This document shows, piece after piece, positions 382 through 53,051 of a stretch of 64,000 bases of DNA. Within the stretch, counting starts at the first letter, position 1; each line of letters opens with the position of its first letter. Source of the stretch: an uncultured Candidatus Saccharibacteria bacterium (GTDB taxonomy: Bacteria > Patescibacteriota > Minisyncoccia > UBA6257 > 2-01-FULL-56-20); the NCBI GenBank assembly GCA_964403045.1, contig CAYOEP010000001.1, positions 9,009 through 73,008 on the forward strand, given 5' to 3'. The notes under the pieces are model-generated. The model had not been told where the DNA came from. It worked only from the letters and a program-made list of their open reading frames with translations, and did not search any database. The position numbers were made by a program, and so were the translations under genes.

Positions 382-425
382 ATATTGAATCTGCTAATAA
401 TTATACACTATTGGCATTTGCGCTT

Positions 426-1094: not shown

Positions 1095-1108
1095 TTTCCT
1101 TGTTTTCT

Positions 1109-2323: not shown

Positions 2324-2390
2324 TTACCACTTGTGCTCCTCGGCTTTTACATTATAACATAACCACCCTTCTCGGATGCGCAGAACTCTC

Positions 2391-2741: not shown

Positions 2742-2754
2742 AATAGATAATAGA

Positions 2755-4497: not shown

Positions 4498-4502
4498 AGG
4501 CG

Positions 4503-5225: not shown

Positions 5226-5290
5226 AGAGATGGTAAGATTTTTGCTGCTTTAATTATATCCTGAGGGGGGCAAAGAGAAAAATGTTGTGG

Positions 5291-5794
5291 TTAATAATCT
5301 ACCCGCTTCGCGATCTTGCGTTGTCCTGAAATGTCTTCGAGAACTTCATAGCGCTCTTGCTGGCTTGCTGCCGCCTGCTTCTTTTGGGAGGAAGATTGCA
5401 GTTTGTGCCACGCCTGCTTGAGGGCAGTGCCGTAGATAATTTGGTCGAGGGCAATCCCGCTTTTCTTAGCTTCCTCCCGCAGTGCATCTTTCGATTTTTG
5501 CATATGGGGCTGATCCGGCTTCCACACGTAGGTTTGTGGGTTCCAGATGAAGAAGAACGCGGAGAGGAGGACTTTTGGGAGTTCGCGGCCATTGATTTTG
5601 ATGAAAGCAAGGGCGCCGGCAGCAGAAACGAGCACAAGGGAAATCATAAACCATGTCCCCATATTGCCGAGGAAAAAGAAGAGGAAAAACGAAATCACGC
5701 CCGCAGAGCCCACGTAGAGGAACTGCTTGAGCGTAAAAGGTCCGATGATTTTGTCTTCGGTTTCTATGAACTGGGGAACTTGGAATTGCGCCAT
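5291..5794 (-). CDS. PrgI-family (VirB3-analog) small membrane protein
   Basis: The N-terminus FQVPQFIETEDKIIGPFTLKQFLYVGSAGVISFFLFFFLG followed by a second TM is typical of PrgI-like proteins of Gram-positive-type T4SS. Confidence 0.6.
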   Translation of the reverse strand: MAQFQVPQFIETEDKIIGPFTLKQFLYVGSAGVISFFLFFFLGNMGTWFMISLVLVSAAGALAFIKINGRELPKVLLSAFFFIWNPQTYVWKPDQPHMQKSKDALREEAKKSGIALDQIIYGTALKQAWHKLQSSSQKKQAAASQQERYEVLEDISGQRKIAKRVDY

Positions 5795-5875
5795 AGCTTT
5801 GCTACCAGTATACCGCAGAATGGCCTGCCGCTACACTCTCGTCTCGCGGCTCTTAGGAGCGCTTTTGGGGAGATG

Positions 5876-6898: not shown

Positions 6899-6918
6899 AA
6901 GGAGTTAATAGGAGTTAA

Positions 6919-9171: not shown

Positions 9172-9180
9172 TACCTCTTT

Positions 9181-10932: not shown

Positions 10933-11009
10933 AGAGCTTTTATTTGGTCTTATTATACCACTTTTGGGGAGCGTGACTTTTCCACAGAGGCAGGTTTACA
11001 GCTTTCTTG

Positions 11010-36657: not shown

Positions 36658-37494
36658 TTGATGCGAAAGATAGACGGCAAGAAAATCGCGGAGCGCATTC
36701 TGGAAAAGCTTGCGGCAACACCGCCACCGCAAAAAAAATTCCTTGGCGCCGCGCTGGTAGGAAATAATCCTGCCTCCGAGGCGTTCCTGAAGAAAAAACA
36801 AGAGGCGGCGAAGGCGGTGGGCGTGGAGTTTCGCCTCTATCAGTTTCCTGAGGAAATTTCTGGAGACGTATTGCGCAGGAAGGTACGCGAGATTGCACTC
36901 CATACAACCTGTGGGGGGTTCTTGCTACAACTCCCCCTCCCACCGCACATCAATCCCCATTATGTGGCGAACGTTATTCCGAGAGAGAAAGACGTGGATG
37001 TGCTGGGTGAGCGTGCGAGGGGGGCGTTTTATAACGGGAGAAATTCTGTATGCCCTCCTGCCGTAGGAGTGGTAGAGGAGGTACTGAGAGAGGTAGATTG
37101 GCGGCTTGAGGAAAAGCTGCTTGCGGTGGTGGGGCTTGGATTTTTGGTGGGGCGCCCCATCGCGGTATGGGCGATGCGCCGCGCGCGGAACACCCTCCTT
37201 TTTCATAAAGACAGCGACTTCGCCCTCGTTGCCGAGGCGGATTTGGTAGTCACGGGAGTGGGAAAATCAGGAGTGGTACGCCCTGAAATGCTCAGGGAAG
37301 GGGCTGGGGTAATTGATTTTGGCTATGACCAAGGGCGGGGAGATCTCGCGCCGGAATGTTTGTCGACAAACATTGCGTTCTACACCCCTACACCCGGCGG
37401 CACGGGACCGATACTGGTAGCAAAACTGATAGAAAACTTTGTTCTTCTCAACGCGCCTGCGCCCCGCCCAGCGGCGCAAACTCGTGAGAGATAG
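36658..37494 (+). CDS. folD: Bifunctional methylenetetrahydrofolate dehydrogenase/cyclohydrolase
   Basis: IDGKKIAERILEKL at the N-terminus and VVGLGFLVGRPIA/GVVRPEM/TPTPGGTGPI motifs. It carries one copy of the 18-bp palindrome in a loop region (37356-37373). Confidence 0.9.
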   Translation: MMRKIDGKKIAERILEKLAATPPPQKKFLGAALVGNNPASEAFLKKKQEAAKAVGVEFRLYQFPEEISGDVLRRKVREIALHTTCGGFLLQLPLPPHINPHYVANVIPREKDVDVLGERARGAFYNGRNSVCPPAVGVVEEVLREVDWRLEEKLLAVVGLGFLVGRPIAVWAMRRARNTLLFHKDSDFALVAEADLVVTGVGKSGVVRPEMLREGAGVIDFGYDQGRGDLAPECLSTNIAFYTPTPGGTGPILVAKLIENFVLLNAPAPRPAAQTRER

Positions 37495-37499
37495 AAAAG

Positions 37500-37574
37500 G
37501 GTGCGCGCGCCTGGATTCAAACCAGGGACCTTCCGGGTGTAAACCGGACGCTCTTATCACTGAGCTACGCGCGC
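37500..37574 (-). tRNA. tRNA-Val (anticodon TAC)
   Basis: Acceptor GCGCGCG/CGCGCGC, anticodon stem TCCGG/CCGGA with loop TTTACAC, T-loop TTTGAAT. Confidence 0.75.
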
Positions 37575-37690
37575 CTCTCGTAGCTATATATCATTGTGGG
37601 AAAAGAAATGCAAGCAACAGCAAGAATGCTACAATAGAGGAGATGGAATAGGAGGAAAAAGGTCGATATTGTTTTTCTTCACAATATTGT

Positions 37691-38431
37691 ATGTGGGGTT
37701 ATCTTATTGCCATCCCTCTGGTGTTCATAGTTTCTGGGTTGAAGATCGTCAACCAATATGAGCGGGGAGTGGTGCTCACGTTAGGGAAGTACACTTCCAC
37801 GCGGCAGCCGGGGCTCACGTGGATTTTCCCCGCAATCCAGAGGATGCTCAAGGTGGATATGCGGATTAAAGTTATCGATGTGCCGGATCAGGATTGCATG
37901 ACGCAGGATAATGTGTCGGTCAACGTGAATGCGGTTATTTACTACCGTATTGCCTCGGCAGAGAAAGCAGTTCTCGAGGTAGAAAAGTACAAATACGCGG
38001 TTTCTCAACTTGCGCAGACTACAATGCGGGACATAGTTGGAGAGGTTACTCTCGACGATCTTCTTTCGAAGCGTGATGAGATCTCTGCGAAGATTCAGTC
38101 TATTGTTGACAAGGTATCTGATCAATGGGGCGTGAAAGTGCAGTCGGTGGATTTGAAGCATGTGGAATTACCGCGAGAGCTAAAGAGGGTAATGGGAAAG
38201 CAGGCAGAGGCAGAGCGAGAACGCCGTGCGGTGATTTTGAAATCAGAAGGAGAGGTGAAGGCAGCAGCGAATTTGGTAGAAGCTGCGAAGATGCTGGGGA
38301 GTACCCCTGGGGCGCTCCACTTGCGCACACTGCACACCCTCAACGACTTGAGCTCCGATCAGTCAAATACTGTTATCTTTGCAGTGCCACTGGAGGTGCT
38401 TCGGGCATTTGAGAGGGTTGAGAAGAAGTAA
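37691..38431 (+). CDS. SPFH/band-7 (stomatin/prohibitin-like) membrane protein
   Basis: N-terminal TM, then the SPFH core (KIVNQYERGVVLTLGKY...VDMRIKVIDVPDQDCMTQDNVSVNVNAVIYYRI) and a coiled-coil C-terminus. Confidence 0.85.
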   Translation: MWGYLIAIPLVFIVSGLKIVNQYERGVVLTLGKYTSTRQPGLTWIFPAIQRMLKVDMRIKVIDVPDQDCMTQDNVSVNVNAVIYYRIASAEKAVLEVEKYKYAVSQLAQTTMRDIVGEVTLDDLLSKRDEISAKIQSIVDKVSDQWGVKVQSVDLKHVELPRELKRVMGKQAEAERERRAVILKSEGEVKAAANLVEAAKMLGSTPGALHLRTLHTLNDLSSDQSNTVIFAVPLEVLRAFERVEKK

Positions 38432-38685
38432 AAAGCAAAGAGGGACAGCGGGAATTTGTCATGCTGCAGTTGCAAAACTCCGCTTGGGTTTTGTTGGCAA
38501 CAATCTGCACCTGTGAGAGCGCAGAGTCATTAGCGGACTACAATTACTGAACGCCGCTTGAACTTTCTTTGAGTGGTAATCCGCCTCCTGATGGGTAGGG
38601 AGTTGCCCAGTGGCGGCGCCAAGCCGACCAAACGGCTGAGCGGAGAGGGTAAGTAATCGCTTCCAAATTTTCAAAATGCCTTGAA

Positions 38686-38759
38686 TGGTCGGGCCGCCGA
38701 GATTCGAACTCGGGCTACATGCTCCCAAAGCATGCGTGCTGCCATTACACCACGGCCCG
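38686..38759 (-). tRNA. tRNA-Pro (anticodon TGG)
   Basis: Acceptor CGGGCCG/CGGCCCG, anticodon stem CATGC/GCATG with loop TTTGGGA, T-loop TTCGAAT, CCA encoded. Confidence 0.75.
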
Positions 38760-38803
38760 CGGCCTTCACATTAGCGCATCTTTTCGCTAGAATCAACGCC
38801 GAA

Positions 38804-38875
38804 GCCCCCGTAGCTCAATGGACAGAGCAGCGGCCTTCTAAGCCGTTGATGCGGGTTCGATTCCTGCCGGGGGTG
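38804..38875 (+). tRNA. tRNA-Arg (anticodon TCT)
   Basis: Acceptor GCCCCCG/CGGGGGT (G1-U72 wobble), anticodon stem GCGGC/GCCGT with loop CTTCTAA, T-loop TTCGATT. Confidence 0.65.
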
Positions 38876-38973
38876 CAGGAAGTTGAGGTTGACAGTTCTA
38901 ATGCTGTGGCATTGAATAGGGAGGCAACTACGGCGTTCGTTGACAACTTTATTCTTATTAAAGGAGGTGCGGA

Positions 38974-39264
38974 ATGCGCAGGAGGAGGTTGGCGCTGTTT
39001 GGCGTGTGCGCGCTTGCGCTGGTTGCGGCGAGCTGTATGCCGACCCGGAATCCTGTTACCTTGCTCCCTAGCGGCACTGATGGAATCGCAGGATTTTGGG
39101 ATGGGCTGTGGCACGGGATTATCTCTCCTATCACGCTTTTCGCTTCAGTATTTTCGGACAAGGTGAGCATGTACAATATCTTCAACAATGGCTGGCACTA
39201 CGATGCCGGTTTTCTCATCGGCATGTGGCTTACCTTTATCTTTATGAGCGGAAAGGCTGAGTAG
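38974..39264 (+). CDS. Small lipoprotein (hypothetical)
   Basis: SD AAAGGAGGTG upstream and a lipobox (LALVAAS-C) after a basic N-terminus. Confidence 0.6.
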   Translation: MRRRRLALFGVCALALVAASCMPTRNPVTLLPSGTDGIAGFWDGLWHGIISPITLFASVFSDKVSMYNIFNNGWHYDAGFLIGMWLTFIFMSGKAE

Positions 39265-39332
39265 GTTGTTTGTTTCTATCACGCCCCTGTTGGGAAGCAG
39301 CAGGGGCGTTTGCACGCTTTTTGCTTTATGGA

Positions 39333-39388
39333 TGGTGCCGCGGGAGGGAATTGAACCCCCGACGCAAGGCTCTTCAGGCCTTCGCTCT
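39333..39388 (-). repeat. Partial tRNA-Phe copy (3' 56 nt), a direct repeat of 41464-41519
   Basis: The 56-nt run TGGTGCCGCGGGAGGGAATTGAACCCCCGACGCAAGGCTCTTCAGGCCTTCGCTCT is identical at both positions. This copy lacks the tRNA 5' half. Confidence 0.9.
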
Positions 39389-39389
39389 G

Positions 39390-41123
39390 CTATACATTGA
39401 GAGGCAGTGCTGCAAGCTTTACAGTAAGCCAAGGTATTGCAAGAAAGATAGTAGAAAAAAGGAAAAGGAAAGCCAATTTCTTCGCCACTCTGCGTCTTGG
39501 GCTAATCCACCAGACAGAATAGCGCGCCGTCTTCAGCTGATTAAAGAGTTCCTCATCCCCCTTCCTGATTTTTTTGAAGAAGAACGCGAGAATAAAAGCG
39601 AGAGGGATGACGAAATACAGAAGAATATACAAACCAATGTACAAAACTAGCTCCACATGACTATTACTTGGGGAGTGTATGATAAGTCTTGCCTCACGTG
39701 TTACGTTTTCCACCAGTTCCCACGAGAGAAGTTTACTTAGAATTTCAAGCGCGAGCACTGGAACTGTAATGAGATAAAGAGAAGCAGCGAGGCGCCGCCT
39801 CCAAATATATCCCTTTTCCCTAAGTGCGTTGGTGATTGAGGCAGCGCGCGGGTTTTGCTCTTTTGGCTTGATGAGGAGGGTAGTAGCTATAACTGTGCCT
39901 ATAATACTTACACAATTCGCCAGCCCTACGAGCGCAAGCGTGCGGGCGCCTTTTTTGTTGCGCAGCTCTCGGAATACGATCCATCCTCCTATCAAACTGG
40001 CGAGGACGGAAGAGAGAAAAAACAGGATGGAGCCAGATAGTATGGGGTGCTGGAAGAGAAACGAGGAATAGTGCACTCTGAAAGGTGCGCGAGGATCGAT
40101 CCATAAATCTTGAGTAAAAGCTCTTGAGGGAGCATAGATTTCAATTTTTGTGTAGGGAACTTCTGAAGGAGTAGTAGGAGCAAGATGTTTTCCTATGGAA
40201 GCTGTCTGATCAATAAAATAATTGACCTTGGTGTAGCGTCGAATCTCGTTGAAGGTTTCTGGAGTTCGGTAGCCGATGACACGGATGGTGGCAGGGATTT
40301 CTTTGTTTCCGTATGCGCTGGTAGGTAAGAGAGGGTAGTAAATTTTTGTGGTGGGGAAAGCAACAAGAACACTCCGTGAACGTGTGGTGCTCGGCGCAGT
40401 ATCAGATGCCGCAATCCAAGATACGACAAAGGTAAAATCCTTGCCGATGTAATGACTAAGAGCAGGGATGGTATTCTCCTCGATATGAAGACCCTTTTCA
40501 CGAAGGTATTGGTAGACCCCCCTTGCAGTTTTTGCAGTAATGACCTCAGCTGCAAGCCCACTTTTTTCAATGTGCTTGTAGGCGACGACATCTGTTGTAA
40601 TTGAAGGTATTGCAATTGAAGATAATGAAGCAGGAGCATCTGGGTAGTATAAAGGACCACTGTAATGAAGTCCCCAAAAGTTTCCCCATCCTCCGGCGAG
40701 AAAAATGGGGTAGAGCTGAGTTGCTGCCAAAAATCTTTTGATGGAAAAAAGTGCGAACTTTGCCTTTCCTGTAATCTCTTCCCCTCGCAGTTGTGGAAAA
40801 TTGCTCTTAAGATCAACAGTGACTTTCGTTGGCGGCGCGGGAACAGGAAAGATCCACACCGCATCTTCTCTTGATGCCTGTAAGTTGATACTAAGAAGCA
40901 TTTTTTCTATCCCATTCTCATAACCGATGAGAGCCTGCTGACTATATTCATCGGCATAAGTCCAGTCGCCCCATCTTTTTGGTTCGTTGAGGTAGGGAGA
41001 AACGATTTTAGAGGGGTACCTGATGACTATCCCATCTGCGAATGTATAAGAGGGAGCGAGTGTTAAAGCGAAGAGGGCGACCACGGTGACAGGAAGTAAA
41101 ATTGTTGCAAGGGGTATTTTCAT
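39390..41123 (-). CDS. Large membrane protein (signal peptide, ~330-aa extracytoplasmic domain, C-terminal multi-TM domain); hypothetical
   Basis: 577 aa. Its stop codon abuts the partial tRNA-Phe copy. It is the only gene between the two tRNA-Phe repeats. Confidence 0.5.
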   Translation of the reverse strand: MKIPLATILLPVTVVALFALTLAPSYTFADGIVIRYPSKIVSPYLNEPKRWGDWTYADEYSQQALIGYENGIEKMLLSINLQASREDAVWIFPVPAPPTKVTVDLKSNFPQLRGEEITGKAKFALFSIKRFLAATQLYPIFLAGGWGNFWGLHYSGPLYYPDAPASLSSIAIPSITTDVVAYKHIEKSGLAAEVITAKTARGVYQYLREKGLHIEENTIPALSHYIGKDFTFVVSWIAASDTAPSTTRSRSVLVAFPTTKIYYPLLPTSAYGNKEIPATIRVIGYRTPETFNEIRRYTKVNYFIDQTASIGKHLAPTTPSEVPYTKIEIYAPSRAFTQDLWIDPRAPFRVHYSSFLFQHPILSGSILFFLSSVLASLIGGWIVFRELRNKKGARTLALVGLANCVSIIGTVIATTLLIKPKEQNPRAASITNALREKGYIWRRRLAASLYLITVPVLALEILSKLLSWELVENVTREARLIIHSPSNSHVELVLYIGLYILLYFVIPLAFILAFFFKKIRKGDEELFNQLKTARYSVWWISPRRRVAKKLAFLFLFSTIFLAIPWLTVKLAALPLNV

Positions 41124-41463
41124 GTATAGAAAAAAGATCTTTTCCGGGTAGCTGATTTCTTGCTATTTTAGCACATTGCGTTGGTATTTTAGATGCAACG
41201 TACAGCTGAACACCTTAGCTTGGAGATTTGAATATGGCACTAGCTTCAACTTGGAAACTAGCAGTTTATGTAGCCTCCTGAACTTGAGGTTTTCCTGAAG
41301 AAAAGTGGCAACACGGCAACACCTGGATTGCCTCTAGTTTGAGAAGAGAGTGAATGAAGTGAACGCTCCCCGTGATATGTGATATAAGTAGGAGACTAAG
41401 GAATGCGAAGAGATAGATGCCACGGATTATGGGGCATGATGATGTGGAATAAGGAAGGGGGTA

Positions 41464-41540
41464 TGGTGCCGCGGGAGGGAATTGAACCCCCGACGCAAGG
41501 CTCTTCAGGCCTTCGCTCTACCACTGAGCTACCGCGGCAG
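41464..41540 (-). tRNA. tRNA-Phe (anticodon GAA)
   Basis: Acceptor GCCGCGG/CCGCGGC, D-loop AGTGGTAGA, anticodon stem AAGGC/GCCTT with loop CTGAAGA, T-loop TTCAATT, CCA encoded. Confidence 0.8.
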
Positions 41541-41589
41541 GAACTACCGGGTATAGCGTACTCGATTTTTTATTTCTGCGCAATATTTT

Positions 41590-42696
41590 TTACTGCTTTG
41601 TTGCGAGGCTGAGCAGGAGACGTCGCTCTTCCGGCTTCAGTGCTTTTACTACAAACCGATAGGTTGTGCCAAGAGAAAGGCGTTGCTTCATCTCGTCCAC
41701 ACTGCCGAATTCTGAAACATGGATAATGCCTTGAAGATCATGGGGAAGATCGATAACTGCTCCGAAGGGGTTAAATTTATAAACGACCCCTTCTACTTCA
41801 TCGCCATCCTTGAAGTACTCTGCCGCTTTCTCCCATGGATCTTCCATCAGCGCTTTGAAGGAGAGAAAGACTTTCCCGTTCCGGATATCAATAATTTTTG
41901 CTTTCCGCACCTCGTTGAGCTTTACGCTCTCCTTGGGATTGGTAATGAGTCGATGGTCTACTTCTGATACGTGCACGAGGCCCTCGATGGAAGGGTTGTC
42001 AACGAATTTCACAAACACGCCGAAATCGGCAATTCCCGACACCATCACATCAACATCTTGCCCCACTTCGTAGTGCTCGAGGAGCTCTTTGAGGTTTGGC
42101 ATCAGGGTTTCGCGTTCGGAAATAATCAGCTTTTTGCTGCGGGGGTTGACATCGATAATTTTGACGTTCAGTTCTTGACCCACGAACTCCTTAAGCGCTT
42201 CTGCAATTTTTTGGCGATCTCCCTGCTCGACGACAGGGTAGTGTTCGCTGGAAAGGCGAGAAACAGGGAGAAATGCCTTCAAGTCGAGCACATTCGCGAT
42301 AAGCCCTCCCGATGAGCTGCCGATGATTTTTGCTTTCACTATCTCGCCGCTTTCTTGGAGTTCTTTTGCTTGTTGCCACAAGCGCTGCTTGTCTGCCTCT
42401 GAGAGGGAAAGTTCCACATATCCTTCGTCATTTTCGATGCAAACCACTTTTGCGTGTACGGTGTCACCGGGCTTGAGGGATTTCAGGAGGTCTTTCGCGT
42501 TCTGCATCTCGATACCATAGACGATGCCAGTGCCAAGATTGCCGATGGCAAAGAACACGCGCCGTGGCTCCTTTTTTAAGAGCACGGCTTCCACAATGTC
42601 GTTTTCTTGAATGGGCTTGTACTTTTTGAGCGATTTTTTAAACCACTGATAGAACGGGTTTTGTGGCTTTTTTGCGGTAAGCGATGCCATCATCAT
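41590..42696 (-). CDS. rpsA: S1 RNA-binding domain protein (ribosomal protein S1-like, 4 S1 repeats)
   Basis: Repeated S1 modules (GDTVHAKVVCIENDEGYVELSLSE; GEIVKAKIIGSSSGGLIANV; GQELNVKIIDVNPRSKKLIISERE; GQDVDVMVSGIADFGVFVKF...). Confidence 0.7.
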   Translation of the reverse strand: MMMASLTAKKPQNPFYQWFKKSLKKYKPIQENDIVEAVLLKKEPRRVFFAIGNLGTGIVYGIEMQNAKDLLKSLKPGDTVHAKVVCIENDEGYVELSLSEADKQRLWQQAKELQESGEIVKAKIIGSSSGGLIANVLDLKAFLPVSRLSSEHYPVVEQGDRQKIAEALKEFVGQELNVKIIDVNPRSKKLIISERETLMPNLKELLEHYEVGQDVDVMVSGIADFGVFVKFVDNPSIEGLVHVSEVDHRLITNPKESVKLNEVRKAKIIDIRNGKVFLSFKALMEDPWEKAAEYFKDGDEVEGVVYKFNPFGAVIDLPHDLQGIIHVSEFGSVDEMKQRLSLGTTYRFVVKALKPEERRLLLSLATKQ

Positions 42697-42820
42697 AGAT
42701 TCCGTCCTGTGCTTTCAGTCATTGTGCACAGGAGACGAGAGGGATTATAGGAGAGCGGGGAGAAAAATGCAAGCATGCGAGAATTGCAGCAGAGCGGGAA
42801 ATAGCGTACAATGAGGCGGC

Positions 42821-43381
42821 ATGGTGGTGCAGTATTTTGGCGATGGCTATTTTCGTATTGCGAGCGGCGAGGCAACACTATTGATCGATCCCCCCGCTCG
42901 TGCGAGGGCAAAAGGCGGGGTGCGGCTTATAACAAAAATTGCCCCCGGATCATTTTTGCCTGTTGCTCGTGACGAAGTGCGGTTTCCCGGCGAATACGAG
43001 CTTGAAGGATGGGAAATCGAAGGAGTGTCACTCCAAGATGGCGCGTCGACAGTTTACGCCGTGCGCCGCGAGGATATCACAATGGGGATTTTTGGCGCAT
43101 TGCGGGAGACGCATCTCGGCGAGGTGATGGAAAAACTTGGCAGTATTGATATTCTTGTGTGCACGCTCCCGTCCGGGAAGGATGCTTCCTTTTCAGTTGC
43201 CGAGAAGGCGCTGAAAGCGCTCGAACCCCCGCTCGCGATTGTCGGCGCGGAGCCGCGCGAGGCATCCCGCATTATGGAAAAATTTAATTCGCGGGCGGAA
43301 CGGCTGGAGAAGGTAACGGTAAAAAGGAAAGATCTTACAGAAGGGGAACGGCTCATCGTACTTACGCCGCTGGCAAAATAA
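42821..43381 (+). CDS. Metallo-beta-lactamase-fold hydrolase (UPF0173-like)
   Basis: [24 protein letters not shown]...[11 protein letters not shown] has the pattern of the short MBL-fold family. Confidence 0.55.
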
Positions 43382-43383
43382 CT

Positions 43384-45810
43384 ATGGCACAAATTGAGAA
43401 GCGTCCCATCACGAATGAACTCAAGGAATCCTACCTCGATTACGCGATGTCGGTGATTGTGTCGCGCGCGCTCCCGGACGCGCGGGACGGCCTCAAACCG
43501 GTGCATCGGCGAATTCTTTGGGCGATGTGGGAGAGCGGGCTTACCCATAGCACGAAGTTTCGGAAATCTGCCAACGTGGTGGGAGAGACATTAGGAAAAT
43601 ACCACCCTCACGGCGATGCTGCGGTCTATGACGCGCTTGTGCGGATGGCGCAGGAATTTTCCATGCGCTACCCCATCATTGAGGGGCAGGGAAATTTTGG
43701 ATCGGTGGATGGCGATTCGGCCGCAGCAATGCGCTACACAGAGGTGCGCCTCGCAAAAATTGCCGAGGAGCTCCTGCGTGATATTGAGAAGGATACAGTA
43801 GATTGGCGCCCCAACTATGACGGAACTCGAAAGGAGCCGGTGGTGCTTCCCGCCAAATTGCCGCACCTCCTCTTAAACGGAACGCTGGGCATCGCGGTGG
43901 GGATGGCGACCAACATTCCGCCGCACAACTTGGCTGAACTGGTGGATGCAATTTTATACCTTGCTGACCATCCCAAGGCGACACATCAGGAATTGATGCG
44001 CATTATCCAGGGACCTGACTTTCCCACGGGAGGTCTGATTTTCAATCGCGAGGAAATTGTACGCGCATACGCTGAGGGACGCGGGACGATTACGATGCGC
44101 GCCCGCGTGGAGATGGAAGAGCGCAAAAAGAAGAGCGGCAGCTCAAGCTGGGCGATCGTGGTTACCGAGCTTCCCTATCAAGTCAACAAGGCAGAGCTCA
44201 TCGCCCGCATTGCCGCGCTGGTGCAGGAGAAAAAGATCGAAGGCATCCGTGACTTGCGCGATGAATCAGACAAGGAAGGCTTACGGGTAGTCATCGAGCT
44301 GAAGGGAGAGGTAGCGCCGCAGAAGGTGTTGAACTATCTCTACCGCCACACTGATCTTCAGCGGGATTTTCATATGAATCTTGTTGCACTCACTGACGGG
44401 CTCCAGCCGCAGCTGCTCTCCATTAAGGAAGCGCTCCAAATCTATCTTGATCATCGCAAGGAAGTAGTCCGCCGCCGCACACAGTTTGATCTTAACCGCG
44501 CGAAGGAGCGGGCACACATCCTTGAGGGGCTTGCGAAAGCACTCCACGCTATTGACAGAGTCATTGCAACCATTAAGAAAGCGAAAGACAAAGAGGACGC
44601 GCGCTCCAAGTTGGTGCGTCAATTTTCCCTGACTGAAGCGCAGGCAACAGCGATTCTTGAAATGCGTCTCCAGACGCTCGCCGCTCTTGAGCGGAAAAAG
44701 ATAGAAGATGAGCTAAAAGAGAAGAAAAAGCTTATCAAGGAACTGACATTAATCCTGAAAAGCCCCGCGCGTATGCTTGCCGTGATCAAAGGAGAGCTTC
44801 GGGAGCTGAAGGAGCAGTACGGCGATCCGCGGCGCACCAAGGTGGTGGCGCGCCCTGTCGCGACATTGACTGAGGAGGATTATGTGCAGGAAGAGGAGGT
44901 GGTGATTACGCTCTCTGCTGGTGGCTATATCAAGCGTATTGCGCCGGGGGCGTTTCGCAGTCAACGACGCGGAGGCAAAGGGTTAATTGGCTCTGATGTG
45001 GGTGACGAGGACTTTATCAGCCATTTTCTCTGCGCGCACACGCACGACCGCATTCTGTTCTTTACCGATCGCGGCAAAGTGTTTCAAGCAAGAGGCTATG
45101 AAATACCGCAAGGAAGCCGCACCGCGAAAGGAAAAGCAGTACACCACTTTCTTGAAATTGCACCCTCCGACCGTATCAGCGCGATTGTAAATGTAGGCAA
45201 GGAGGATGAGGCGAAATATCTTGTGATGGCAACGGAATCAGGGATGATCAAGAAAACTTCTCTCAACCAGTTTCGCAACATTCGCCGCACTGGCATTATG
45301 GCTATTGACTTGAAGAAAGGCGATGCGCTGCGCTGGGTGGGTACTTCCCGCGGCAACGATGAAATTCTCCTCATTACGCGGAAAGGGCAGGCAATTCGGT
45401 TCCGCGAGAGCCAGGTGCGGGCAACGGGACGGAACAGTGCAGGAGTACGTGCAATTCGCCTTAAACAGGGGGATAAAGTTATCGGCTTTGATATAATTCG
45501 AGAGAAGGACAGTGCGAAAGTGCTTACGGTTATGGAGAATGGATTTGCAAAACAAACTCCTCTTGCGCAGTACAAGCTGCAGCAACGGGGCGGGTTAGGG
45601 ATTAAGACTGCCAACATTACCGAGAAAACAGGAGAAATTGTGGCAGGGAGAATAGTCACGCAAGAGGAGGAAATCCTCGCCCTTTCCGCGAAGGGCCAAA
45701 TTATCAAGACGGCACTCGCGAGCGTGCGCACTACAAGTCGCGCCGCGCAAGGGGTGCGTATTATGCACCTCAAGAAAGGAGATTCTATCGCGGGGATCGT
45801 GGTAAGATAG
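43384..45810 (+). CDS. gyrA: DNA gyrase subunit A
   Basis: [34 protein letters not shown], the catalytic Tyr region [10 protein letters not shown], and C-terminal beta-pinwheel repeats. Confidence 0.95.
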
Positions 45811-45817
45811 GAAGAGT

Positions 45818-47125
45818 ATGCCGTTTGGCTTAACACAAAAACAGCTCGCCATTGTGCTCATCGGGGCTATTCTAGTGGGAGGCATTGGCTTTTTCCTCTA
45901 CATTAACATGGGCGGTAAGCGTAATAGCAGCGGCGTGCCGGGAGGGGATGTTATCGAGTTAACAGCATGGGGCCCCTTTCCTGAAGCGATGCTTAAGGAC
46001 GCAATCGATAGTTTTGATGGCGCCAAAATTATCTACACCCAAATCGAACCTTCGAAGTATAAGAAGAAGCTTTTGGATGCGCTTGCGGCAGGCAAGGGGC
46101 CGGATATCTACATGGTGGATAGCCGCGCGCTTCCTCAAGAGCTGGAGAGGATTGTGTCTGCTCCCGGCGGGAAGATTACGCCGGTAGAAGTGCAGCAGCT
46201 TTTTCCCGATGTAGTAACGCACGATTTTGTATATGAGTCAGAAGATGGCACTCCAAATATTTACGGGCTCCCGCTCTACCTTGACACACTTGCCCTTGTC
46301 TACAACAAAGATATTTTCAACCAAGAAGCCGTCCTCCGTCCTCCTGCTACTTGGGAGGAATTCCAGCAGGTCGTGCAGCATCTTCGTAAACTTAATCAGT
46401 ACGGGCAAATTACCCGCGCCGCCGCCGCGATAGGGGGCTCAAAGAAAAGCATCGCAAACGCGGTGGATATTTTAAACCTCTTGATGCTGCAAAATGGCAC
46501 AAAATTTGTGGACGAAAAGACAGGACACGCGGTTTTTGCTGGAGGCAGGGCTGGGGAAGAGGCGTTGAACTTCTATCTTCAGTTTGGCAACGCGGGATCC
46601 CCCTACTACACCTGGAATGATCTGCAGGGCGACTTCCTCCAGCGGTTTGTGGACGGAAAAGTGGCGATGATTTTTGCCTATAAGTCGCAGGTAAACGACA
46701 TTCTCGCCCGCGCCCCGTTCCTCAATTTTGCAATTGCCCCTGTGCCGCAGCCGGAAGGGAGGGAAGTGGACGTCAACTATCCTTCCTATTGGGGACTTGT
46801 AGTCTCATCGCAAACGAGGGAGCCGGAGGTGGCATGGGACTTTGTAGTGCACGCGGCAACAGACGAGGACGCTGCACAAGCAAGAATTACCGCTACCAAC
46901 TTGCCCCCCGCACTCAAATCGCTCTATGAGCCTTTGCTGAATGATCCTAGCTACTACGCGTTCGTACAGGAGGCACTGACGGCGAAATCGTGGCACCAGC
47001 CGGATGAAGAGCTCGTGCAAGAGATATTTTCTACAGCAATGCAGCGTGTGCTTGCGGGGAAAACGGATGTGCAGGGGGCGCTGCAGGAGGCTGAGGAGAA
47101 ATTGAACGAGGAAGTACTACAATGA
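45818..47125 (+). CDS. ABC transporter extracellular solute-binding protein (family 1, sugar-type), membrane-anchored
   Basis: N-terminal TM anchor and an SBP_bac_1-like pattern (GPDIYMVDSRALPQE...MIFAYKSQVND). Confidence 0.7.
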   Translation: MPFGLTQKQLAIVLIGAILVGGIGFFLYINMGGKRNSSGVPGGDVIELTAWGPFPEAMLKDAIDSFDGAKIIYTQIEPSKYKKKLLDALAAGKGPDIYMVDSRALPQELERIVSAPGGKITPVEVQQLFPDVVTHDFVYESEDGTPNIYGLPLYLDTLALVYNKDIFNQEAVLRPPATWEEFQQVVQHLRKLNQYGQITRAAAAIGGSKKSIANAVDILNLLMLQNGTKFVDEKTGHAVFAGGRAGEEALNFYLQFGNAGSPYYTWNDLQGDFLQRFVDGKVAMIFAYKSQVNDILARAPFLNFAIAPVPQPEGREVDVNYPSYWGLVVSSQTREPEVAWDFVVHAATDEDAAQARITATNLPPALKSLYEPLLNDPSYYAFVQEALTAKSWHQPDEELVQEIFSTAMQRVLAGKTDVQGALQEAEEKLNEEVLQ

Positions 47126-47595
47126 AGATAATGCATAGCTGGAAAAAAAAGGTATTTCCGACCTTTGTCGCCCTCGCCACAGGAATTCTGGTTGCCCGCC
47201 CCGCGAGTGCCCACAGCATTGGGCTTCCGTACTGGCCTTCCAAGAGTAACCCAATCGTGCCGTGCAGTGCGTTGGGAACTGGTGGAAGGCCGGCTTGCAC
47301 CAGCTGGTGCGATCTTATTCACCTTGCCCAGCACGTGATTTATTTTCTGCTCACGCTTGCTATCTTTATCGTCGGACCGTTTATGATAGGGGTAGGAGGC
47401 ATTATGCTGATGATTTCGGCGGGCGCTCCGGAGCGGATGGCGCAGGGCAAGAAGGTGCTCACCGGTGCGGTAATTGGAATGCTGATCGGGCTGTTTTCCT
47501 ATCTCATCGTGGGTACCATTTTCTTCCTTATTGGGATAACATTTGGATGGAGGGGAAGCAACGGCAACTGGTCGTCAATACAATGTAGAGTATGA
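47122..47595 (+). CDS. TrbC/VirB2-like pilin paralog 1
   Basis: Signal peptide, a Cys-containing segment, and two TM helices around the motif ISAGAPERMAQGKKVLTGAVIGMLIGLFSYLIV. Confidence 0.6.
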   Translation: MKIMHSWKKKVFPTFVALATGILVARPASAHSIGLPYWPSKSNPIVPCSALGTGGRPACTSWCDLIHLAQHVIYFLLTLAIFIVGPFMIGVGGIMLMISAGAPERMAQGKKVLTGAVIGMLIGLFSYLIVGTIFFLIGITFGWRGSNGNWSSIQCRV

Positions 47596-47957
47596 GGAAG
47601 AATCTTTTTCAGTTGAGGTGGTGCCTATCGGTGTTCAGGAGCTATGTGTATTCGCTGGGCATAGTGAGTATTGTGCAAGCAGGCGGGTATGGGTATGGGT
47701 CCTTTAACCTGCCAAGCCCTATCGGCTGTGAGGATTTTGGCTGTGTGGCAGAGAAGATCGCGATTGCCCTAAGCTATCTCGCCGTGCCTATCCTTACGGT
47801 AATGGTGCTTGTGGGCGGCTACCAGATTATGTTTTCCGCGGGCAACCCAGAGAAACTCAAAGCAGGCAAGCGCACAATCCTCTATGCGGCGATTGGCTTC
47901 CTCGTGGTGCTCATTGCCCAGTCGGCACGGCTTATCATTATGAGTATTTTTACTTAA
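47592..47957 (+). CDS. TrbC/VirB2-like pilin paralog 2
   Basis: The motif MFSAGNPEKLKAGKRTILYAAIGFLVVLIAQS lies between two TM helices. The start overlaps the previous stop. Confidence 0.6.
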   Translation: MRKNLFQLRWCLSVFRSYVYSLGIVSIVQAGGYGYGSFNLPSPIGCEDFGCVAEKIAIALSYLAVPILTVMVLVGGYQIMFSAGNPEKLKAGKRTILYAAIGFLVVLIAQSARLIIMSIFT

Positions 47958-48023
47958 TATGGTACAATAAAGAACGTGCATGTGGACATCGAAAGGTCGT
48001 TTATTTAAAATGAGGGCGAGTGC

Positions 48024-48443
48024 ATGAGACTAAGCAAAGAAAAATTTATAGGAATCTTTCGAGAAGGTGTAATAAAAGTAATTGTTCCAGTTACAATTAC
48101 TGTAGCAGGGCTTTGGCGAGCGCCTCTTGCTTATGGCCTACTAGCAGTGCGCAATGATGCGCCGCAGCTTAAAGTGCGGGACTGGAAAGGTATAGAAACT
48201 ATGCTTTGTAACTTTGCGGATACAATGGCGGTGCTCTTCTTTGTGGTTGCTGTAGTGTTTACATTAGTTGCGGCATATCAGTATCTTGTATCAGGGGGTG
48301 ATACCGAGAAAGTTAAGAAGGCGTCCAAGACTCTCACATATACAGCAGTAGCGGTAGTGGTGGCGTTGTTGGCGTTCGCATTTCCACGAATAGTCTTTTC
48401 TATTTTTGGGGGTGGTAGAATGAATGATGCGTGTGCGAGTTAA
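48024..48443 (+). CDS. TrbC/VirB2-like pilin paralog 3
   Basis: YQYLVSGGDTEKVKKASKTLTYTAVAVVVALLAFAF. Confidence 0.55.
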   Translation: MRLSKEKFIGIFREGVIKVIVPVTITVAGLWRAPLAYGLLAVRNDAPQLKVRDWKGIETMLCNFADTMAVLFFVVAVVFTLVAAYQYLVSGGDTEKVKKASKTLTYTAVAVVVALLAFAFPRIVFSIFGGGRMNDACAS

Positions 48444-48484
48444 CTTATATCAGTATAAATTGAGATCAAAGGTCGAAAAAGTGT

Positions 48485-48868
48485 GTGCAGCAAAAAACTA
48501 TGCGTAAGGTTGTAAAAGGGATGGCAAGTATCGCAGCGTTAGTAGTTCCGGTAGTAGCGCTCGCGGCTGGGAATGCAGGCGGGCCTAACCCTGTTCCTGA
48601 CTCTCCCATCAAAACCATTTCAGGTGCGCTCCAGCTTCTCTGTAGGATTTTTGCGTGGCTGTTTACCTTCTTCATCGTCATTGCCGTCATCTTCGTGTTG
48701 CTTGCTGCGTGGAAGTATCTCACTGCGGCAGGTGATGCGGACAAGGTGAAGTCAGCGAACCAGAGCTTGATTTATGCCGCGGTTGCGGTTGGCGTGGCGC
48801 TTATCGCAAAGGGAGTCCCCACGATTGTGTCTACATTGATGGGCGGGCAGGACATTACTGCCTGCTGA
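48485..48868 (+). CDS. TrbC/VirB2-like pilin paralog 4
   Basis: Signal peptide (ASIAALVVPVVALAAG) and the motif WKYLTAAGDADKVKSANQSLIYAAVAVGVALIAKG. Confidence 0.6.
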   Translation: MQQKTMRKVVKGMASIAALVVPVVALAAGNAGGPNPVPDSPIKTISGALQLLCRIFAWLFTFFIVIAVIFVLLAAWKYLTAAGDADKVKSANQSLIYAAVAVGVALIAKGVPTIVSTLMGGQDITAC

Positions 48869-51302: not shown

Positions 51303-51384
51303 GCCCCCGTGGCGGAATTGGAAGACGCGCATGGTTTAGGACCATGTCCCGCAAGGGGTGGAGGTTCAAATCCTCCCGGGGGCA
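51303..51384 (+). tRNA. tRNA-Leu (anticodon TAG), class II with long variable arm
   Basis: Acceptor GCCCCCG/CGGGGGC, anticodon stem CATGG/CCATG with loop TTTAGGA, a long variable arm (TCCCGCAAGGGGTG) and T-loop TTCAAAT. Confidence 0.7.
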
Positions 51385-52115
51385 CTGCGATCGCTTTTTA
51401 CGCACTTGGCACACTGCTTTGAGAGGGAATTGATCAGGAAGGTGCGGAAACGAGCTGGAGAAACGCCGAGTAGGCTGCGAAGCGATGAAGGGAATGCGCT
51501 GCCGGGCTTGAGGAAGAGCAGTCGCGGGAGAATTTGGGTGCCGTATTTTTCTGAGATGACATGGATAAGGTGGAAGGAAATAGTGTAGCCGCGTAGACGC
51601 ACGAAAGATTGCACTGTGATATCCTGCGAAAGTGCCTTTTGCAAAAATTGGTTAAGTTGGGCACGGGTAAAATCACATGGCTTTTCTTGGCGCGCCACAA
51701 ATAGGGCAATTCCCTCATCAACCCACCGTAGGGCTCGGGAGTTTATCGTTCGGTGAAAAATGTGAGCGAGCTCATGGGTGAGGATTTTTTGAAACGACGA
51801 TTTCCTATGGCAGCTTTCTTGGGAAATAACAGAGGGACTTAAAATGTAAATAGTGTTGCAATGCGCTTTTGTAATCGCCGCAACCCAATCAGGCGTATTC
51901 TTGGCAACTTTCTTATCGAGTTCTTTTCGTGAGTAAATAAGTTCGCATACTCCTTTCGGGGCAGGAGTGTTATAGAAACCCTCGAGCGTAGCAAGTAAGT
52001 TTTGCAGTGTTGTTTTGAGTGCGACAGGGTCATCGCAAGTTGCGGAGAGCAATGTCCATCGTTGCCCCCTCGACCCTGCGTTAAAAGGAAGACGCTGTTT
52101 GCGATGATTCAGCAT
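51366..52115 (-). CDS. Putative zinc metallopeptidase (HExxH) (hypothetical)
   Basis: The ILTHELAHIFH motif. Its 3' end overlaps tRNA-Leu by ~19 nt on the opposite strand. Confidence 0.45.
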   Translation of the reverse strand: MLNHRKQRLPFNAGSRGQRWTLLSATCDDPVALKTTLQNLLATLEGFYNTPAPKGVCELIYSRKELDKKVAKNTPDWVAAITKAHCNTIYILSPSVISQESCHRKSSFQKILTHELAHIFHRTINSRALRWVDEGIALFVARQEKPCDFTRAQLNQFLQKALSQDITVQSFVRLRGYTISFHLIHVISEKYGTQILPRLLFLKPGSAFPSSLRSLLGVSPARFRTFLINSLSKQCAKCVKSDRSAPGRI

Positions 52116-52163: not shown

Positions 52164-53051
52164 TCACTTCAATTTCCTACGCCGGCGGTGGAAGGCGCGG
52201 TGGACTTCTTGGAGTGCTTTGTTGGTGAGGTGGGTATAGATTTGGGTAGTTGTCACGCTTGCGTGGCCGAGGAGTTCCTGCACCGCGCGGAGGTCGGCAC
52301 CGTTCATTAAGAGGTCGGTGGCAAAGCTGTGGCGGATCATATGCGGGTGCACGCGGTGCGGGATTCCCGCCTCTGCCGCGCGGCGCTGTATCATCCTTTG
52401 CACCGCTCGGGGGGTGATTCTGCCGAGCACTCTGCCTTTTTTGGAGAGGCTTACGAAGAGCGCTTCTTGCGCGTCATCACGCCGCGCGAGATAGGATTGG
52501 ATCGCCGCTTTTGCGGTATCGGAAAGGAAAACTACCCTAATTTTCTCTCCCTTTCCCCGCACTGAGATTTCTCCTCTTTCGAACGCGAGCGTACGGTTGA
52601 GCGCGCAGAGCTCAGAAAGGCGGAGTCCTGTGGAGAACAATGTTTCCAAAATTGCCTTGTCGCGCAGGTCGCGGAGCGAGGAGCCGCGGACATCGAGAAG
52701 CCGCTCCAAGTCTTCGTAGTCGAGAATATCAATTTGACGCTTTGCTATTCGGGGGAGTTCTATTTTTTCGGCAGCAAGGGTTGTAATGTCGCGTTTTGCG
52801 AGGTACTTGAGAAAATTGCGAAGCGCGATGAGGTAGTAGGTCTGAGTAATTTTCTTTATCCCTTTTCGCGCGAGCGCGAGGCGGAACTTGCGGACTGTTT
52901 CCTCAGTAATATGCTCGGGAAGGGTAATGCGCGCAAAGGCAAGGAATTCGCGGAGATAGCGGGCATAATTCTTGCGGGTGGCAAGCGAACGGTTTTTCTC
53001 CAGCTCGAGGTAGTTGAGATAGTCGTCGAGCAACGTGGCGATTTTTGCCAT
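52164..53051 (-). CDS. xerC: Tyrosine recombinase XerC/XerD family
   Basis: N-terminal SAM-like core-binding domain; catalytic R...HxxR...Y ([36 protein letters not shown]). Confidence 0.85.

Follow-up and report, generated by a model that had tools for sequence, protein, structure and literature searches.

A candidate one-gene, integrase-less islet between repeats of the tRNA-Phe 3' end in a Candidatus Saccharibacteria genome

How did a single membrane-protein gene come to lie between a complete tRNA-Phe gene and a truncated second copy of the same tRNA in the genome of an uncultured Candidatus Saccharibacteria bacterium? The locus occurs in a stretch of 64,000 nucleotides (assembly GCA_964403045.1, contig CAYOEP010000001.1, positions 9,009 to 73,008), hereafter the window, to which the coordinates refer (Table 1). 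A repeat search identified a direct repeat of 57 nt (100% identity), consisting of the last 56 nt of tRNA-Phe(GAA) and one flanking nucleotide. The first-pass annotation had reported an exact repeat of 56 bp at 39333-39388; the exactness holds, while the length falls one nucleotide short. It had also assigned the T arm, acceptor strand and CCA to the repeat, which is correct but incomplete, as the 3' strand of the D stem and the anticodon arm are covered as well. The intact minus-strand tRNA-Phe(GAA) was likewise recognised, although ARAGORN ends the gene at 41538 rather than at 41540. The first 19 nt of this gene occur once and the remaining 56 belong to repeat copy 1; the distal copy lacks these 19 nt, in agreement with the missing 5' half described earlier. 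The complete tRNA, the insert and the displaced 3' fragment follow each other in the same orientation, and as in tRNA-targeting elements the 3'-end repeat stands on both sides, the complete tRNA marking the proximal end and the partial copy, on the 3' side of the tRNA, the distal one. The attL/attR signature of integration into a tRNA 3' end that had been proposed for this segment thus fits every geometric test applied, with an enclosed DNA that is atypical in composition and devoid of a recombinase.

Table 1. Positions of the features at the tRNA-Phe locus in the window
Feature	Position	Strand	Evidence
Lipoprotein-like gene, 96 aa, outside the repeat (context only)	38974..39264	+	phrog_30702, E = 1.3e-16
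Presumed original tRNA-Phe 3' flank	39265..39331	.	Sequence; terminator-like site 39302-39321
Repeat copy 2, 57 nt, displaced tRNA-Phe 3' fragment (attR-like)	39332..39388	.	Repeat search; Rfam
Cargo gene, 577 aa: signal peptide, DUF2330 ectodomain, C-terminal helices	39390..41123	-	ORF call
Leader/spacer between tRNA and cargo gene, ~340 nt	41124..41462	-	ORF, Rfam, fold and promoter scans
Repeat copy 1, 57 nt, tRNA-Phe 3' 56 nt + 1 nt	41463..41519	.	Repeat search, sequence
tRNA-Phe(GAA), intact, encoded CCA, proximal (attL-like) end	41464..41538	-	ARAGORN; Rfam tRNA, 71 bits
S1-domain protein gene, directly upstream of tRNA-Phe; synteny anchor	41590..42696	-	Pfam S1

The exact recurrence of a 57-mer inside 64 kb cannot be explained by chance, and partial copies of any other tRNA were not found in the window. 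One alternative source of the layout is a tandem duplication of tRNA-Phe around the gene, after which the distal copy would have decayed in its 5' part. Two details recall such a history: the 17 nt upstream of the fragment allow a weak full-length tRNA alignment, the distal copy scoring 23.7 bits against the Rfam threshold of 29 bits, and the last codons of the cargo gene include CTCAATG, reminiscent of the D-loop CTCAGTG. The identity between the two copies, however, drops within one position from 57/57 to practically nothing, unlike the outcome of neutral decay, the enclosed DNA is compositionally foreign, and the C-terminus of the cargo protein coincides with the normal end of its family, indicating that the gene did not extend into a dead tRNA. 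Two intact tRNA-Phe genes around the same gene, the arrangement that had been named in advance as speaking for duplication, were not seen in the syntenic relatives, which carry at most one tRNA-Phe in the interval and lack the cargo gene. A duplication origin is therefore considered very improbable.

The segment could also have been created during assembly, if a 2.1-kb circle, or a segment of another organism sharing the 57-mer, had been threaded into the chromosome. A unit flanked by a single repeat makes a loop in the assembly graph, the Logan contig carrying the gene (run SRR7905022, L001) is isolated, and the assembly GCA_003695395.1 breaks at the distal repeat boundary. Against this, contig RFJQ01000547.1 of the latter assembly (L013) corresponds to window positions 39290-43631 with an identical layout and 14 SNPs, nine of which fall inside the insert, and the repeat copies are 57/57 identical in both assemblies. 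This contig extends 42 nt into the flank past the distal repeat copy, and it alone holds both the left flank, repeat and gene end and the leader, repeat and 5' part of the tRNA; both assemblies cross the junctions with unique sequence on either side of each 57-mer. In the Logan contig the cargo stop codon is independently joined to 30 nt of the tRNA fragment. Since L013 repeats the layout with 14 SNPs and the Logan contig repeats the junction, the layout is no single-assembly artefact, and a chimeric origin of the segment is hardly credible. In GCA_003695395.1, contig 419 (L095) terminates precisely where the distal repeat does and shares 99 nt with contig 547, an overlap that indicates a k-mer size exceeding the repeat; the termination hints that an empty-site allele, with a different continuation, exists in the population. 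The predicted empty-site allele would consist of the 99-mer 39290-39388 continuing into ACCACTGAGC.

The insert has a G+C content of 45.3%, compared with 52.3% for the window, which places it among the lowest 4.5% of equal-sized windows; its GC3 is 0.44 against a median of 0.58, and its tetranucleotide distance lies in the top 7%. Its composition is foreign, with a shift that is moderate rather than extreme, and the T4SS genes at 1-11 kb of the window are equally AT-rich. The stretch between the cargo gene and the tRNA (41124-41463) had been described as 340 bp of non-coding DNA, and all of its ORFs are indeed of 42 aa or less. Rfam searches of this leader (E <= 1) gave no match besides tRNAs, its predicted RNA fold is not significant (z = -1.3), and it contains a tandem GGCAACAC GGCAACAC at 41307-41322. 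A sigma-70-like promoter or a terminator was not called on the cargo strand in the leader. As neither was called between the cargo gene and the tRNA, transcription reading through from the tRNA-Phe/S1 unit is a plausible means of expressing the cargo. On the other side of the insert, the presumed original 3' flank, which is common to L013 and L095, contains a GC-rich hairpin (~39283-39307) with a run of T behind it, a putative terminator of the convergent lipoprotein-like gene. The latter gene had no tblastn match in L099, L101, L006, L008, L009 or L012.

The 577-aa cargo gene was correctly placed at 39390-41123 by the first-pass annotation; its TAG stop codon (39390-39392) does not quite abut the distal repeat, one base (39389) lying between them. 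The encoded protein comprises a signal peptide and a beta-rich DUF2330 ectodomain (residues ~60-345), with long helices bundled at the C-terminus (~348-576), and is modelled by AlphaFold2 with a pLDDT of 76.6 and a pTM of 0.67. Pfam PF10092 (DUF2330) is matched over residues 61-265 with 28.0 bits, passing the gathering threshold (cut-off 24.7 bits), and is also precomputed for many of the homologs, while PHROGs, NCBIfam and PADLOC gave no meaningful match for the protein. Its sequence identity to the baculovirus P35 protein is 10-11%, with low TM-scores over the whole chain, and the cargo protein differs further from P35 in its signal peptide and its large helical membrane domain. The domain architecture predicts that the cargo is an exported protein with a multi-helix membrane anchor, belonging to a Patescibacteria-wide DUF2330 family. 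We know of no function for DUF2330, and no mention of it was found in the literature searched.

The 577-aa gene, with DUF2330 as its only Pfam domain, is the sole ORF above 42 aa in the segment, and the earlier statement that the enclosed DNA carries no recombinase stands. The only tyrosine recombinase encoded in the 64 kb, 11 kb away, is an Xer-type gene (52164-53051) with matches to the SAM-like N-domain. A jackhmmer search seeded with this Xer detected no second tyrosine recombinase in the window, and none within 6 kb of the cargo homologs in 57 non-redundant loci. The search had been extended to intact integrative elements as proposed in the first-pass annotation, and the cargo gene was found in no integrase-bearing element among the homolog loci, viral contigs, phages and plasmids. 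The 57-mer has no exact match in the IMG/VR viral contigs, alignment of the cargo family with viral contigs yielded no confirmed relatives, and tblastn with the cargo protein against 50,697 phage records and 72,556 plasmids gave no match. No parental element is known, as homologs are absent from viral contigs, phage genomes and plasmids.

The available syntenic relatives are distant, with S1 identities of 56-64%; among 5.8 billion proteins no S1 relative closer than 64-65% identity was found. Three relatives (L008, L099 and L101) keep the backbone of gyrA, an MBL-fold gene and S1 through to folD, together with the tRNA set Phe/Arg/Pro/Val, and the cargo gene was not found in them, at low S1 identity and in a rearranged interval. 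In L008, tRNA-Phe is followed by tRNA-Arg after 70 bp, while L101 has no tRNA-Phe at the locus. The interval between S1 and folD is hypervariable and rearranged among the relatives, and the empty-site comparison spans this interval because the closest relatives share only 56-64% S1 identity. The tRNA-Phe of the relatives further differs in the anticodon and T stems.

Homologs of the cargo protein were found 66 times in Patescibacteria, the best being 44-47% identical. Within one subfamily, 75-84% nucleotide identity extends over the gene alone, with unrelated flanks, and members occur behind at least ten different tRNAs. A codirectional tRNA is located less than 1 kb upstream in 12 of 37 homolog loci; for control genes taken from these loci the figure is 19 of 142 (p = 0.013), and in none of the 37 is a tRNA in the opposite orientation found within 1 kb upstream. 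The association is partial, involving approximately one third to one half of the loci against a local control rate of 13%. The possibility that the homologs are orthologs sharing one conserved tRNA-rich neighbourhood was rejected, since their flanks are mostly unrelated by tblastx. In one further locus (L030) the cargo stop codon is immediately followed by a second copy of the sequence found at the tRNA 3' end. Searches with seeds of at least 16 nt, alignments against shuffles and longest-common-substring comparisons of the junctions identified tRNA-derived flanking repeats only in L030 and the window, and no long tRNA-derived repeat around the gene was found in the other homolog loci; the window is therefore not simply one instance of a uniform mechanism. 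Long perfect inverted repeats surround the unit in L026, L038, L040/41, L089 and L094. They were considered as transposon ends and rejected, as the same GC-rich element occurs in direct orientation in L075 and after the stop codon in most loci of the subfamily, and the window has none. The element is instead interpreted either as a dispersed repeat of intergenic regions or as a fold-back of the assembly, given its direct orientation in L075 and its position after the stop codon in most loci. The occurrence of the family behind different tRNAs is a moderately interesting lead.

Taking these observations together, the segment is read as a small, non-autonomous, att-flanked islet in the 3' end of tRNA-Phe that resembles a CIME (cis-mobilizable element), an interpretation held with about even confidence. 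A circular DNA of 2,131 bp, made up of one gene, the 340-bp leader and 57 bp identical to the tRNA-Phe 3' end, would have undergone Campbell-type recombination with the chromosomal tRNA-Phe. The exchange would have regenerated a complete tRNA next to the proximal junction (attL), while the 3' fragment of the former tRNA, together with the flank behind it, came to lie at the distal junction (attR). The catalyst was most likely a tyrosine-type site-specific recombinase, presumably supplied in trans because the islet encodes none. Repeat copy 1 includes both dyad-symmetric stem-loops of the tRNA, namely the anticodon arm (AAGGC-CTGAAGA-GCCTT) and the T arm (GGGGG-TTCAATT-CCCTC). According to Williams (2002), such anticodon and T stem-loops are reportedly the sites used by integrases of this type.

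In place of a site-specific enzyme, a RecA-dependent single crossover within the shared 57 bp may be envisaged, the partner being a circularised donor fragment in which the gene already lay behind a tRNA-Phe. The family is often located directly downstream of tRNAs, so that donor fragments would exist, and in L096 a tRNA-Phe is part of a tRNA cluster just upstream of the homolog. The lack of an integrase would fit, and the GC-rich intergenic repeats that flank the unit elsewhere, direct or inverted, suggest repeat-mediated exchange. A length of 57 bp is, however, short for RecA, and the variation of tRNA-Phe between relatives would call for a donor of nearly the same species, yet the insert is foreign in composition. 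The circle would moreover have had one end exactly at a stop codon and the other within the D stem, and a fragment with such ends has no obvious origin. An origin by homologous recombination is considered improbable.

An att-flanked islet without an integrase might also be the decayed stump of an integrase-bearing prophage, ICE or IME at tRNA-Phe, in which deletions spared one selected gene and the att sites; it would then be a CIME in the narrow sense. Integrase-less, att-flanked elements classically arise by this route (PMC5704250). The leader is unusually long for a compact genome and could be deletion debris, the XRE gene adjoining the cargo gene in the homolog subfamily is truncated at varying points, showing that deletions erode such units, and the hypervariability of the S1-folD interval would be compatible with a history of this kind. 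Set against these points are the repeat copies, which are still 57/57 identical, and the leader, in which no pseudogene relic was detected and tblastn with the XRE proteins of the homolog loci gave no relic of that gene (E >= 0.2). A single nucleotide separates the distal boundary from the stop codon, the 57 non-redundant homolog loci show no tyrosine recombinase within 6 kb, and viral contigs, phage genomes and plasmids contain no homolog. Descent from a larger element by decay is a possible but doubtful explanation. The first-pass annotation had offered a decayed element and a cassette-like insertion as alternatives. The entry of a one-gene unit is considered more likely than the survival of a stump of a large element, a leaning that is based on the family loci without a nearby tyrosine recombinase and on the boundary at the stop codon.

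CIMEs are defined by att-like repeats around an integrase-less content (PMC5704250), and both are found here. A CIME is expected to be mobilised in cis, once an incoming element with the same att site has joined it by accretion. The islet has attL- and attR-like repeats at a tRNA 3' end, lacks integrase, excisionase and transfer genes, and would be movable only by the recombinase of another element. The CIMEs described are several kb in size, derive from recognisable Firmicutes ICEs and usually occur in tandem with them, in contrast to a 2.1-kb islet with one gene, a Patescibacteria host, no known parental element and no relics of decay. For the descent from an ICE or IME that strict CIMEs imply, neither leader relics nor a parental element nor a recombinase near the 57 loci was found, an old decay being a possible history. 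The actinomycete element pSAM2 has ~58 bp in common with tRNA-Pro, a segment stretching between the anticodon loop and the 3' end. The islet resembles pSAM2-type elements in the length and position of the identity block (57 bp here), the regeneration of the tRNA and the location of the element 3' of it; these elements encode their own tyrosine integrase beside attP, and the islet encodes none. Williams (2002) is also said to have classified the target sublocations of integrases in tRNA genes.

The islet shares other features with islands of compact genomes. Streamlined genomes with islands linked to tRNA or tmRNA genes include that of Prochlorococcus, where the islands are flanked by tRNAs. 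Small islands are inserted at ssrA in Dehalococcoides (PMC3146451). The Dehalococcoides islands and those of Prochlorococcus have in common with the islet a compact genome, horizontally acquired cargo lying behind a small-RNA gene that is present once, direct repeats of the 3' end of this gene and an interval that is hypervariable between relatives; they are larger, multi-gene and integrase-associated, unlike a unit of one gene without an integrase. Literature searches found nothing relevant on tRNA islands in Patescibacteria.

Integron gene cassettes and IMEX elements are non-autonomous units inserted by a recombinase encoded elsewhere. The islet resembles both in its small size, its single promoter-poor ORF, the boundary at the ORF end and the dependence on a foreign-encoded recombinase. 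It differs in its target, a tRNA gene, and in the lack of an attC-like element, attI, IntI and a dif site; no attC-like imperfect inverted repeat was found after the cargo ORF, and the Xer-type enzyme is the only tyrosine recombinase in the window, with no IntI. The islet is accordingly not counted among either of them. A more far-reaching, speculative reading, which we consider rather unlikely, is that the DUF2330 gene, with or without a small XRE regulator, is the passenger of undescribed minimal, recombinase-less cassettes of Patescibacteria, which would be inserted unidirectionally at many tRNA 3' ends by a recombinase encoded elsewhere, the window copy, with its perfect 57-bp att repeats and a possible empty-site allele in its population, being recent and perhaps still mobile. 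Candidate enzymes for such cassettes are a host Xer-like recombinase or the enzyme of an unseen helper element.

The mobile elements and mechanisms of gene flow in Patescibacteria (CPR) are poorly charted, their genomes being tiny and compact with few recognisable integrases. The islet represents a known kind of integration scar, and its interest derives from the recurrence of its surface-exposed family behind many different tRNAs in related bacteria, to which the family has moved repeatedly with no recombinase nearby. As a clean, recent and integrase-less insertion, it would indicate that tRNA 3' ends serve as sites of gene acquisition in Patescibacteria too, and it supplies defined junction sequences that can be checked directly in reads. 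If the family pattern fails in complete genomes, an ordinary integration scar remains. If the pattern holds, an insertion system that acts in trans or is encoded by the host would be indicated, as would strong turnover of a surface protein, which would be relevant to episymbiotic lifestyles; should the cassettes envisaged above exist, they would parallel integron cassettes or IMEX elements, with tRNA genes as their anchor.

An exact 57-nt direct repeat, the sole long repeat found in a search of the region, is shared by an intact tRNA-Phe(GAA) gene (identified by ARAGORN; Rfam score 71 bits) and a displaced fragment. In tRNA orientation it begins with the 3' strand of the D stem (AGAGC), takes in the anticodon arm, variable loop, T arm, 3' strand of the acceptor stem, discriminator base and encoded CCA, and closes with one flanking base. 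The coordinates of the first-pass annotation were correct to within 1-2 nt, but it had understated the coverage of the tRNA by ending the repeat at the T arm. The distal copy is missing the 5'-most 19 nt of the tRNA, and its Rfam tRNA score of 23.7 bits falls short of the 29-bit threshold. No partial copy was found within the window for any of its other seven tRNAs (0/7). The complete tRNA is followed on its 3' side by the insert and then by the displaced 3' fragment in the same orientation, the layout classically produced when DNA integrates at the 3' end of a tRNA gene. Beyond the fragment lies the apparent original flank, a GC-rich hairpin terminating a convergent gene for a 96-aa lipoprotein-like protein. 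This gene adjoins the distal repeat outside the insert and matches phrog_30702, a phage protein family of unknown function (E = 1.3e-16), and it may have been acquired earlier at this tRNA cluster.

Coordinates of features in the window and in homologous or syntenic loci (L numbers)
Feature	Locus	Coordinates	Strand	Remarks
Type IV secretion-like gene set	window	1-11000 and 47122-48868		
VirB4/TraG-type ATPase	window	2755-4497		type IV secretion-like set
PrgI-like gene	window	5291-5794		type IV secretion-like set
TrbL/VirB6-like gene	window	6919-9171		type IV secretion-like set
S1-folD interval	window	37494-41590		
Lipoprotein-like gene (96 aa)	window	38974-39264	plus	
Distal repeat copy	window	39332-39388		
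577-aa ORF	window	39390-41123	minus	between repeat copies; TAG stop one base from distal repeat
Proximal repeat copy	window	41463-41519		
tRNA-Phe(GAA)	window	41464-41538	minus	
Four small T4SS-pilin-like genes	window	47.1-48.9 kb		syntenic in relative L099
tRNA-Leu	window	51303-51385		
Xer-type recombinase	window	52164-53051	minus	Phage_integrase 1.7e-40 and SAM-like N-domains; only tyrosine recombinase in window
S1-folD interval	L008	1171-5510		S1 identity 56%; brackets tRNA-Phe, tRNA-Arg (70 bp past tRNA-Phe), tRNA-Val
S1-folD interval	L099	8104-14693		S1 identity 64%; 6.6 kb; tRNA Phe/Pro/Arg/Val
S1-folD interval	L101	8092-14810		S1 identity 64%; 6.7 kb; tRNA Arg/Pro/Val; tRNA-Phe nowhere in locus
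tRNA-linked repeat	L030	5495-6000 and 7552-7579		tRNA-Ser(GGA), then two tandem ~142-nt units, each ending in the tRNA's last 16-19 nt
GC-rich direct repeat	L075	2134-2217 and 4548-4631		
XRE-type HTH gene	L026	225-431		
XRE-type HTH gene	L040	212-409		

The segment is read as an insertion that arose when the chromosomal tRNA-Phe recombined with a DNA in which 57 bp of its 3' end were duplicated. The tRNA-Phe in the window encodes its CCA end (GGCACCA), while those of relatives do not (GGCACA...; L006, L008, L012 and L096) and also differ from it in the anticodon and T stems. Because of these differences, the tRNA-Phe end borne by the incoming DNA must have been a copy of the one found in this lineage.

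Apart from the 577-aa gene, the DNA between the repeat copies comprises a 340-nt stretch in which all ORFs are of 42 aa or fewer, and no recombinase is encoded in the insert. Its G+C content (45.3%, against 52.3% for the window) is below that of 95.5% of equal-sized windows, its tetranucleotide distance falls in the top 7% and the GC3 of the gene is 0.44 against a median of 0.58, a moderate shift in composition. The remaining AT-rich genes in the window belong to type IV secretion, and the part of this set at 1-11 kb matches the insert in AT richness. In the interval from tRNA-Phe to the ATG, no promoter-like or terminator-like site was called on the strand of the gene, making putative expression by read-through from the tRNA-Phe/S1 unit plausible. 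The encoded protein combines a signal peptide with a DUF2330 domain (28 bits; cut-off 24.7 bits) and, towards its C terminus, a long helical membrane region; with 33 homologs as input, AlphaFold2 gave a model with a pLDDT of 76.6 and a pTM of 0.67. It has no match in PHROGs, NCBIfam or PADLOC, homologs are absent from the phage collections, plasmid collections and viral contigs searched, and DUF2330 is not mentioned in the literature searched. Greedy ORF calls over the whole window and a jackhmmer search of its six-frame ORF set, seeded with the one tyrosine recombinase found there, yielded only the Xer-type gene adjoining tRNA-Leu. A homolog occupies the same position beside tRNA-Leu in the relative L009 (jackhmmer E = 1e-176), and this gene therefore looks like a housekeeping gene.

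The same layout is observed in a further assembly. A 4,342-bp contig of GCA_003695395.1 (L013, RFJQ01000547.1) is colinear with window positions 39290-43631, with 14 differing positions, and carries, along the plus strand of the window, a unique left flank of 42 nt followed by the distal repeat, the gene, its leader, the complete tRNA, S1 and part of gyrA. In a Logan contig of run SRR7905022 (L001), which ends at window position 41200, adjacent to one of the 14 SNPs (41201), the stop codon is joined to 30 nt of the tRNA fragment. None of the SNPs falls inside either repeat copy. The integrated arrangement is thus no artefact of a single assembly, and a misassembled origin of the islet is highly implausible. 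A second contig of GCA_003695395.1 (L095, RFJQ01000419.1) bears folD, an SPFH gene and the lipoprotein gene, and ends exactly with the final base of the distal repeat (window position 39388), overlapping L013 by exactly 99 nt (39290-39388). This 99-mer includes the 42 nt of unique flank, so that the 57-nt repeat alone would be insufficient to produce a graph branch there. Judging from the contig ends, the simplest reading is that some reads leave the flank and repeat for sequence that is not the end of the gene; the 5' part of the tRNA is the obvious candidate, which would possibly reflect an empty-site allele in the population.

Judging from the names of the sources of its protein matches, the organism is a Patescibacteria/Parcubacteria MAG. 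Among 5.8 billion proteins, no relative of the window S1 protein exceeds 65% identity, and a close empty site was therefore not findable. The backbone of two of the three syntenic relatives (L099 and L101) comprises T4SS pilins, a solute-binding protein, gyrA, an MBL-fold gene, S1 and then folD; their tRNA order and orientation are unlike those of the window, and unrelated small genes lie between the tRNAs. The 577-aa protein, the lipoprotein and the SPFH protein are encoded in none of the relatives examined. From these comparisons, the S1-folD interval is a tRNA-rich hypervariable region in which the same tRNAs (Phe, Pro, Arg and Val) recur in varying orders and orientations. Each relative has at most one tRNA-Phe in this interval, which argues against the tandem tRNA-Phe duplication envisaged in the first-pass annotation as a refuting scenario, a very remote prospect.

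A protein search recovered 66 homologs of the 577-aa protein, the best of which are 44-47% identical, and 80 homolog loci from metagenomes, together with several of other origin, form 57 clusters at 90% nucleotide identity. The homolog loci concerned are L002, L003/L015, L017-L094 and L096-L098. A tRNA (Ala, Gly, Pro, Lys, Val, four Ser isoacceptors, Leu, two Glu or Asp) lies within 1.5 kb upstream in 22 of the 57 clusters and shares the strand of the gene in 21 of those 22, and a Leu-Lys-Val-Phe-Gly tRNA cluster precedes the homolog in L096. The flanks of the homolog loci are themselves tRNA-rich (0.13 tRNA per kb per strand). In a conservative test restricted to loci whose upstream sequence spans at least 1 kb, with genes of at least 200 aa from the same loci as controls, a codirectional tRNA occurs within 1 kb upstream of 12/37 family genes and 19/142 control genes (p = 0.013, Fisher's test), and an opposite-strand tRNA in 0/37 and 8/142, respectively. 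The tRNA association of the DUF2330 family is real but partial. A stronger sign of apparent relocation is seen in a subfamily of approximately 20 non-redundant loci, where the gene aligns at 75-84% nucleotide identity in single HSPs, homology fades 30-320 nt upstream and 0-190 nt downstream, most of the flanking genes show no relationship by tblastx and the tRNAs that precede the gene are not the same. At every locus, the 6 kb around the homolog proved free of detectable tyrosine recombinases.

The conserved upstream block of this subfamily is a small XRE-type HTH gene (65-68 aa) ending 16 nt before the ATG, which is present in nine loci (L017, L022, L026, L040, L089, L094, L019, L091 and L075) and reduced to its last 15-30 codons, adjoined by tRNA or other DNA, in L032, L027, L070, L030, L023 and L037. 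In the whole family, L030 is the only other locus with a tRNA-linked flanking repeat: 30 nt from the terminal A of tRNA-Ser onward are repeated directly after the homolog's stop codon, which the right boundary abuts as in the window. This homolog is therefore the second of the family to lie within an att-like structure. A GC-rich intergenic repeat (GGCGGCGCGCCA...GGCACGAAATTCGGCGGCGGCG...GCGAGGGCGGG), located after the stop codon in most subfamily loci, flanks other homologs in direct (L075) or inverted orientation (L026, L040, L041 and L089). Long, perfect inverted repeats surround the HTH-plus-gene unit in L038 (463-nt arms) and L094 (281-nt arms), and the arms measure 79-112 nt in L026, L040/L041 and L089; these could be real repeats, inversion polymorphisms or assembler fold-backs. 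No flanking repeats of this type occur in the window.

The islet is unable to move on its own. It fits the definition of a cis-mobilizable element (CIME), with retained att sites and absent integration genes (PMC5704250), but evidence of descent from a larger element, the usual origin of a CIME, is missing. An even chance is given to the preferred reading, in which a unit of one gene entered with catalysis in trans. Leaning this way are the perfect identity of the repeats, the position of the boundary at the stop codon, the absence of decay relics and the consistent occurrence of the family as one- or two-gene units without a recombinase. Decay of a larger element to the present islet is less likely, and integration of a circularised donor fragment by a RecA-mediated Campbell event is more improbable still. 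The feature is a tRNA-flanked, integrase-less islet of a kind already known. The behaviour of the cargo family across loci is the more interesting lead, but its importance would hinge on complete genomes containing several tRNA-linked copies and, with them, an associated trans-acting recombinase.
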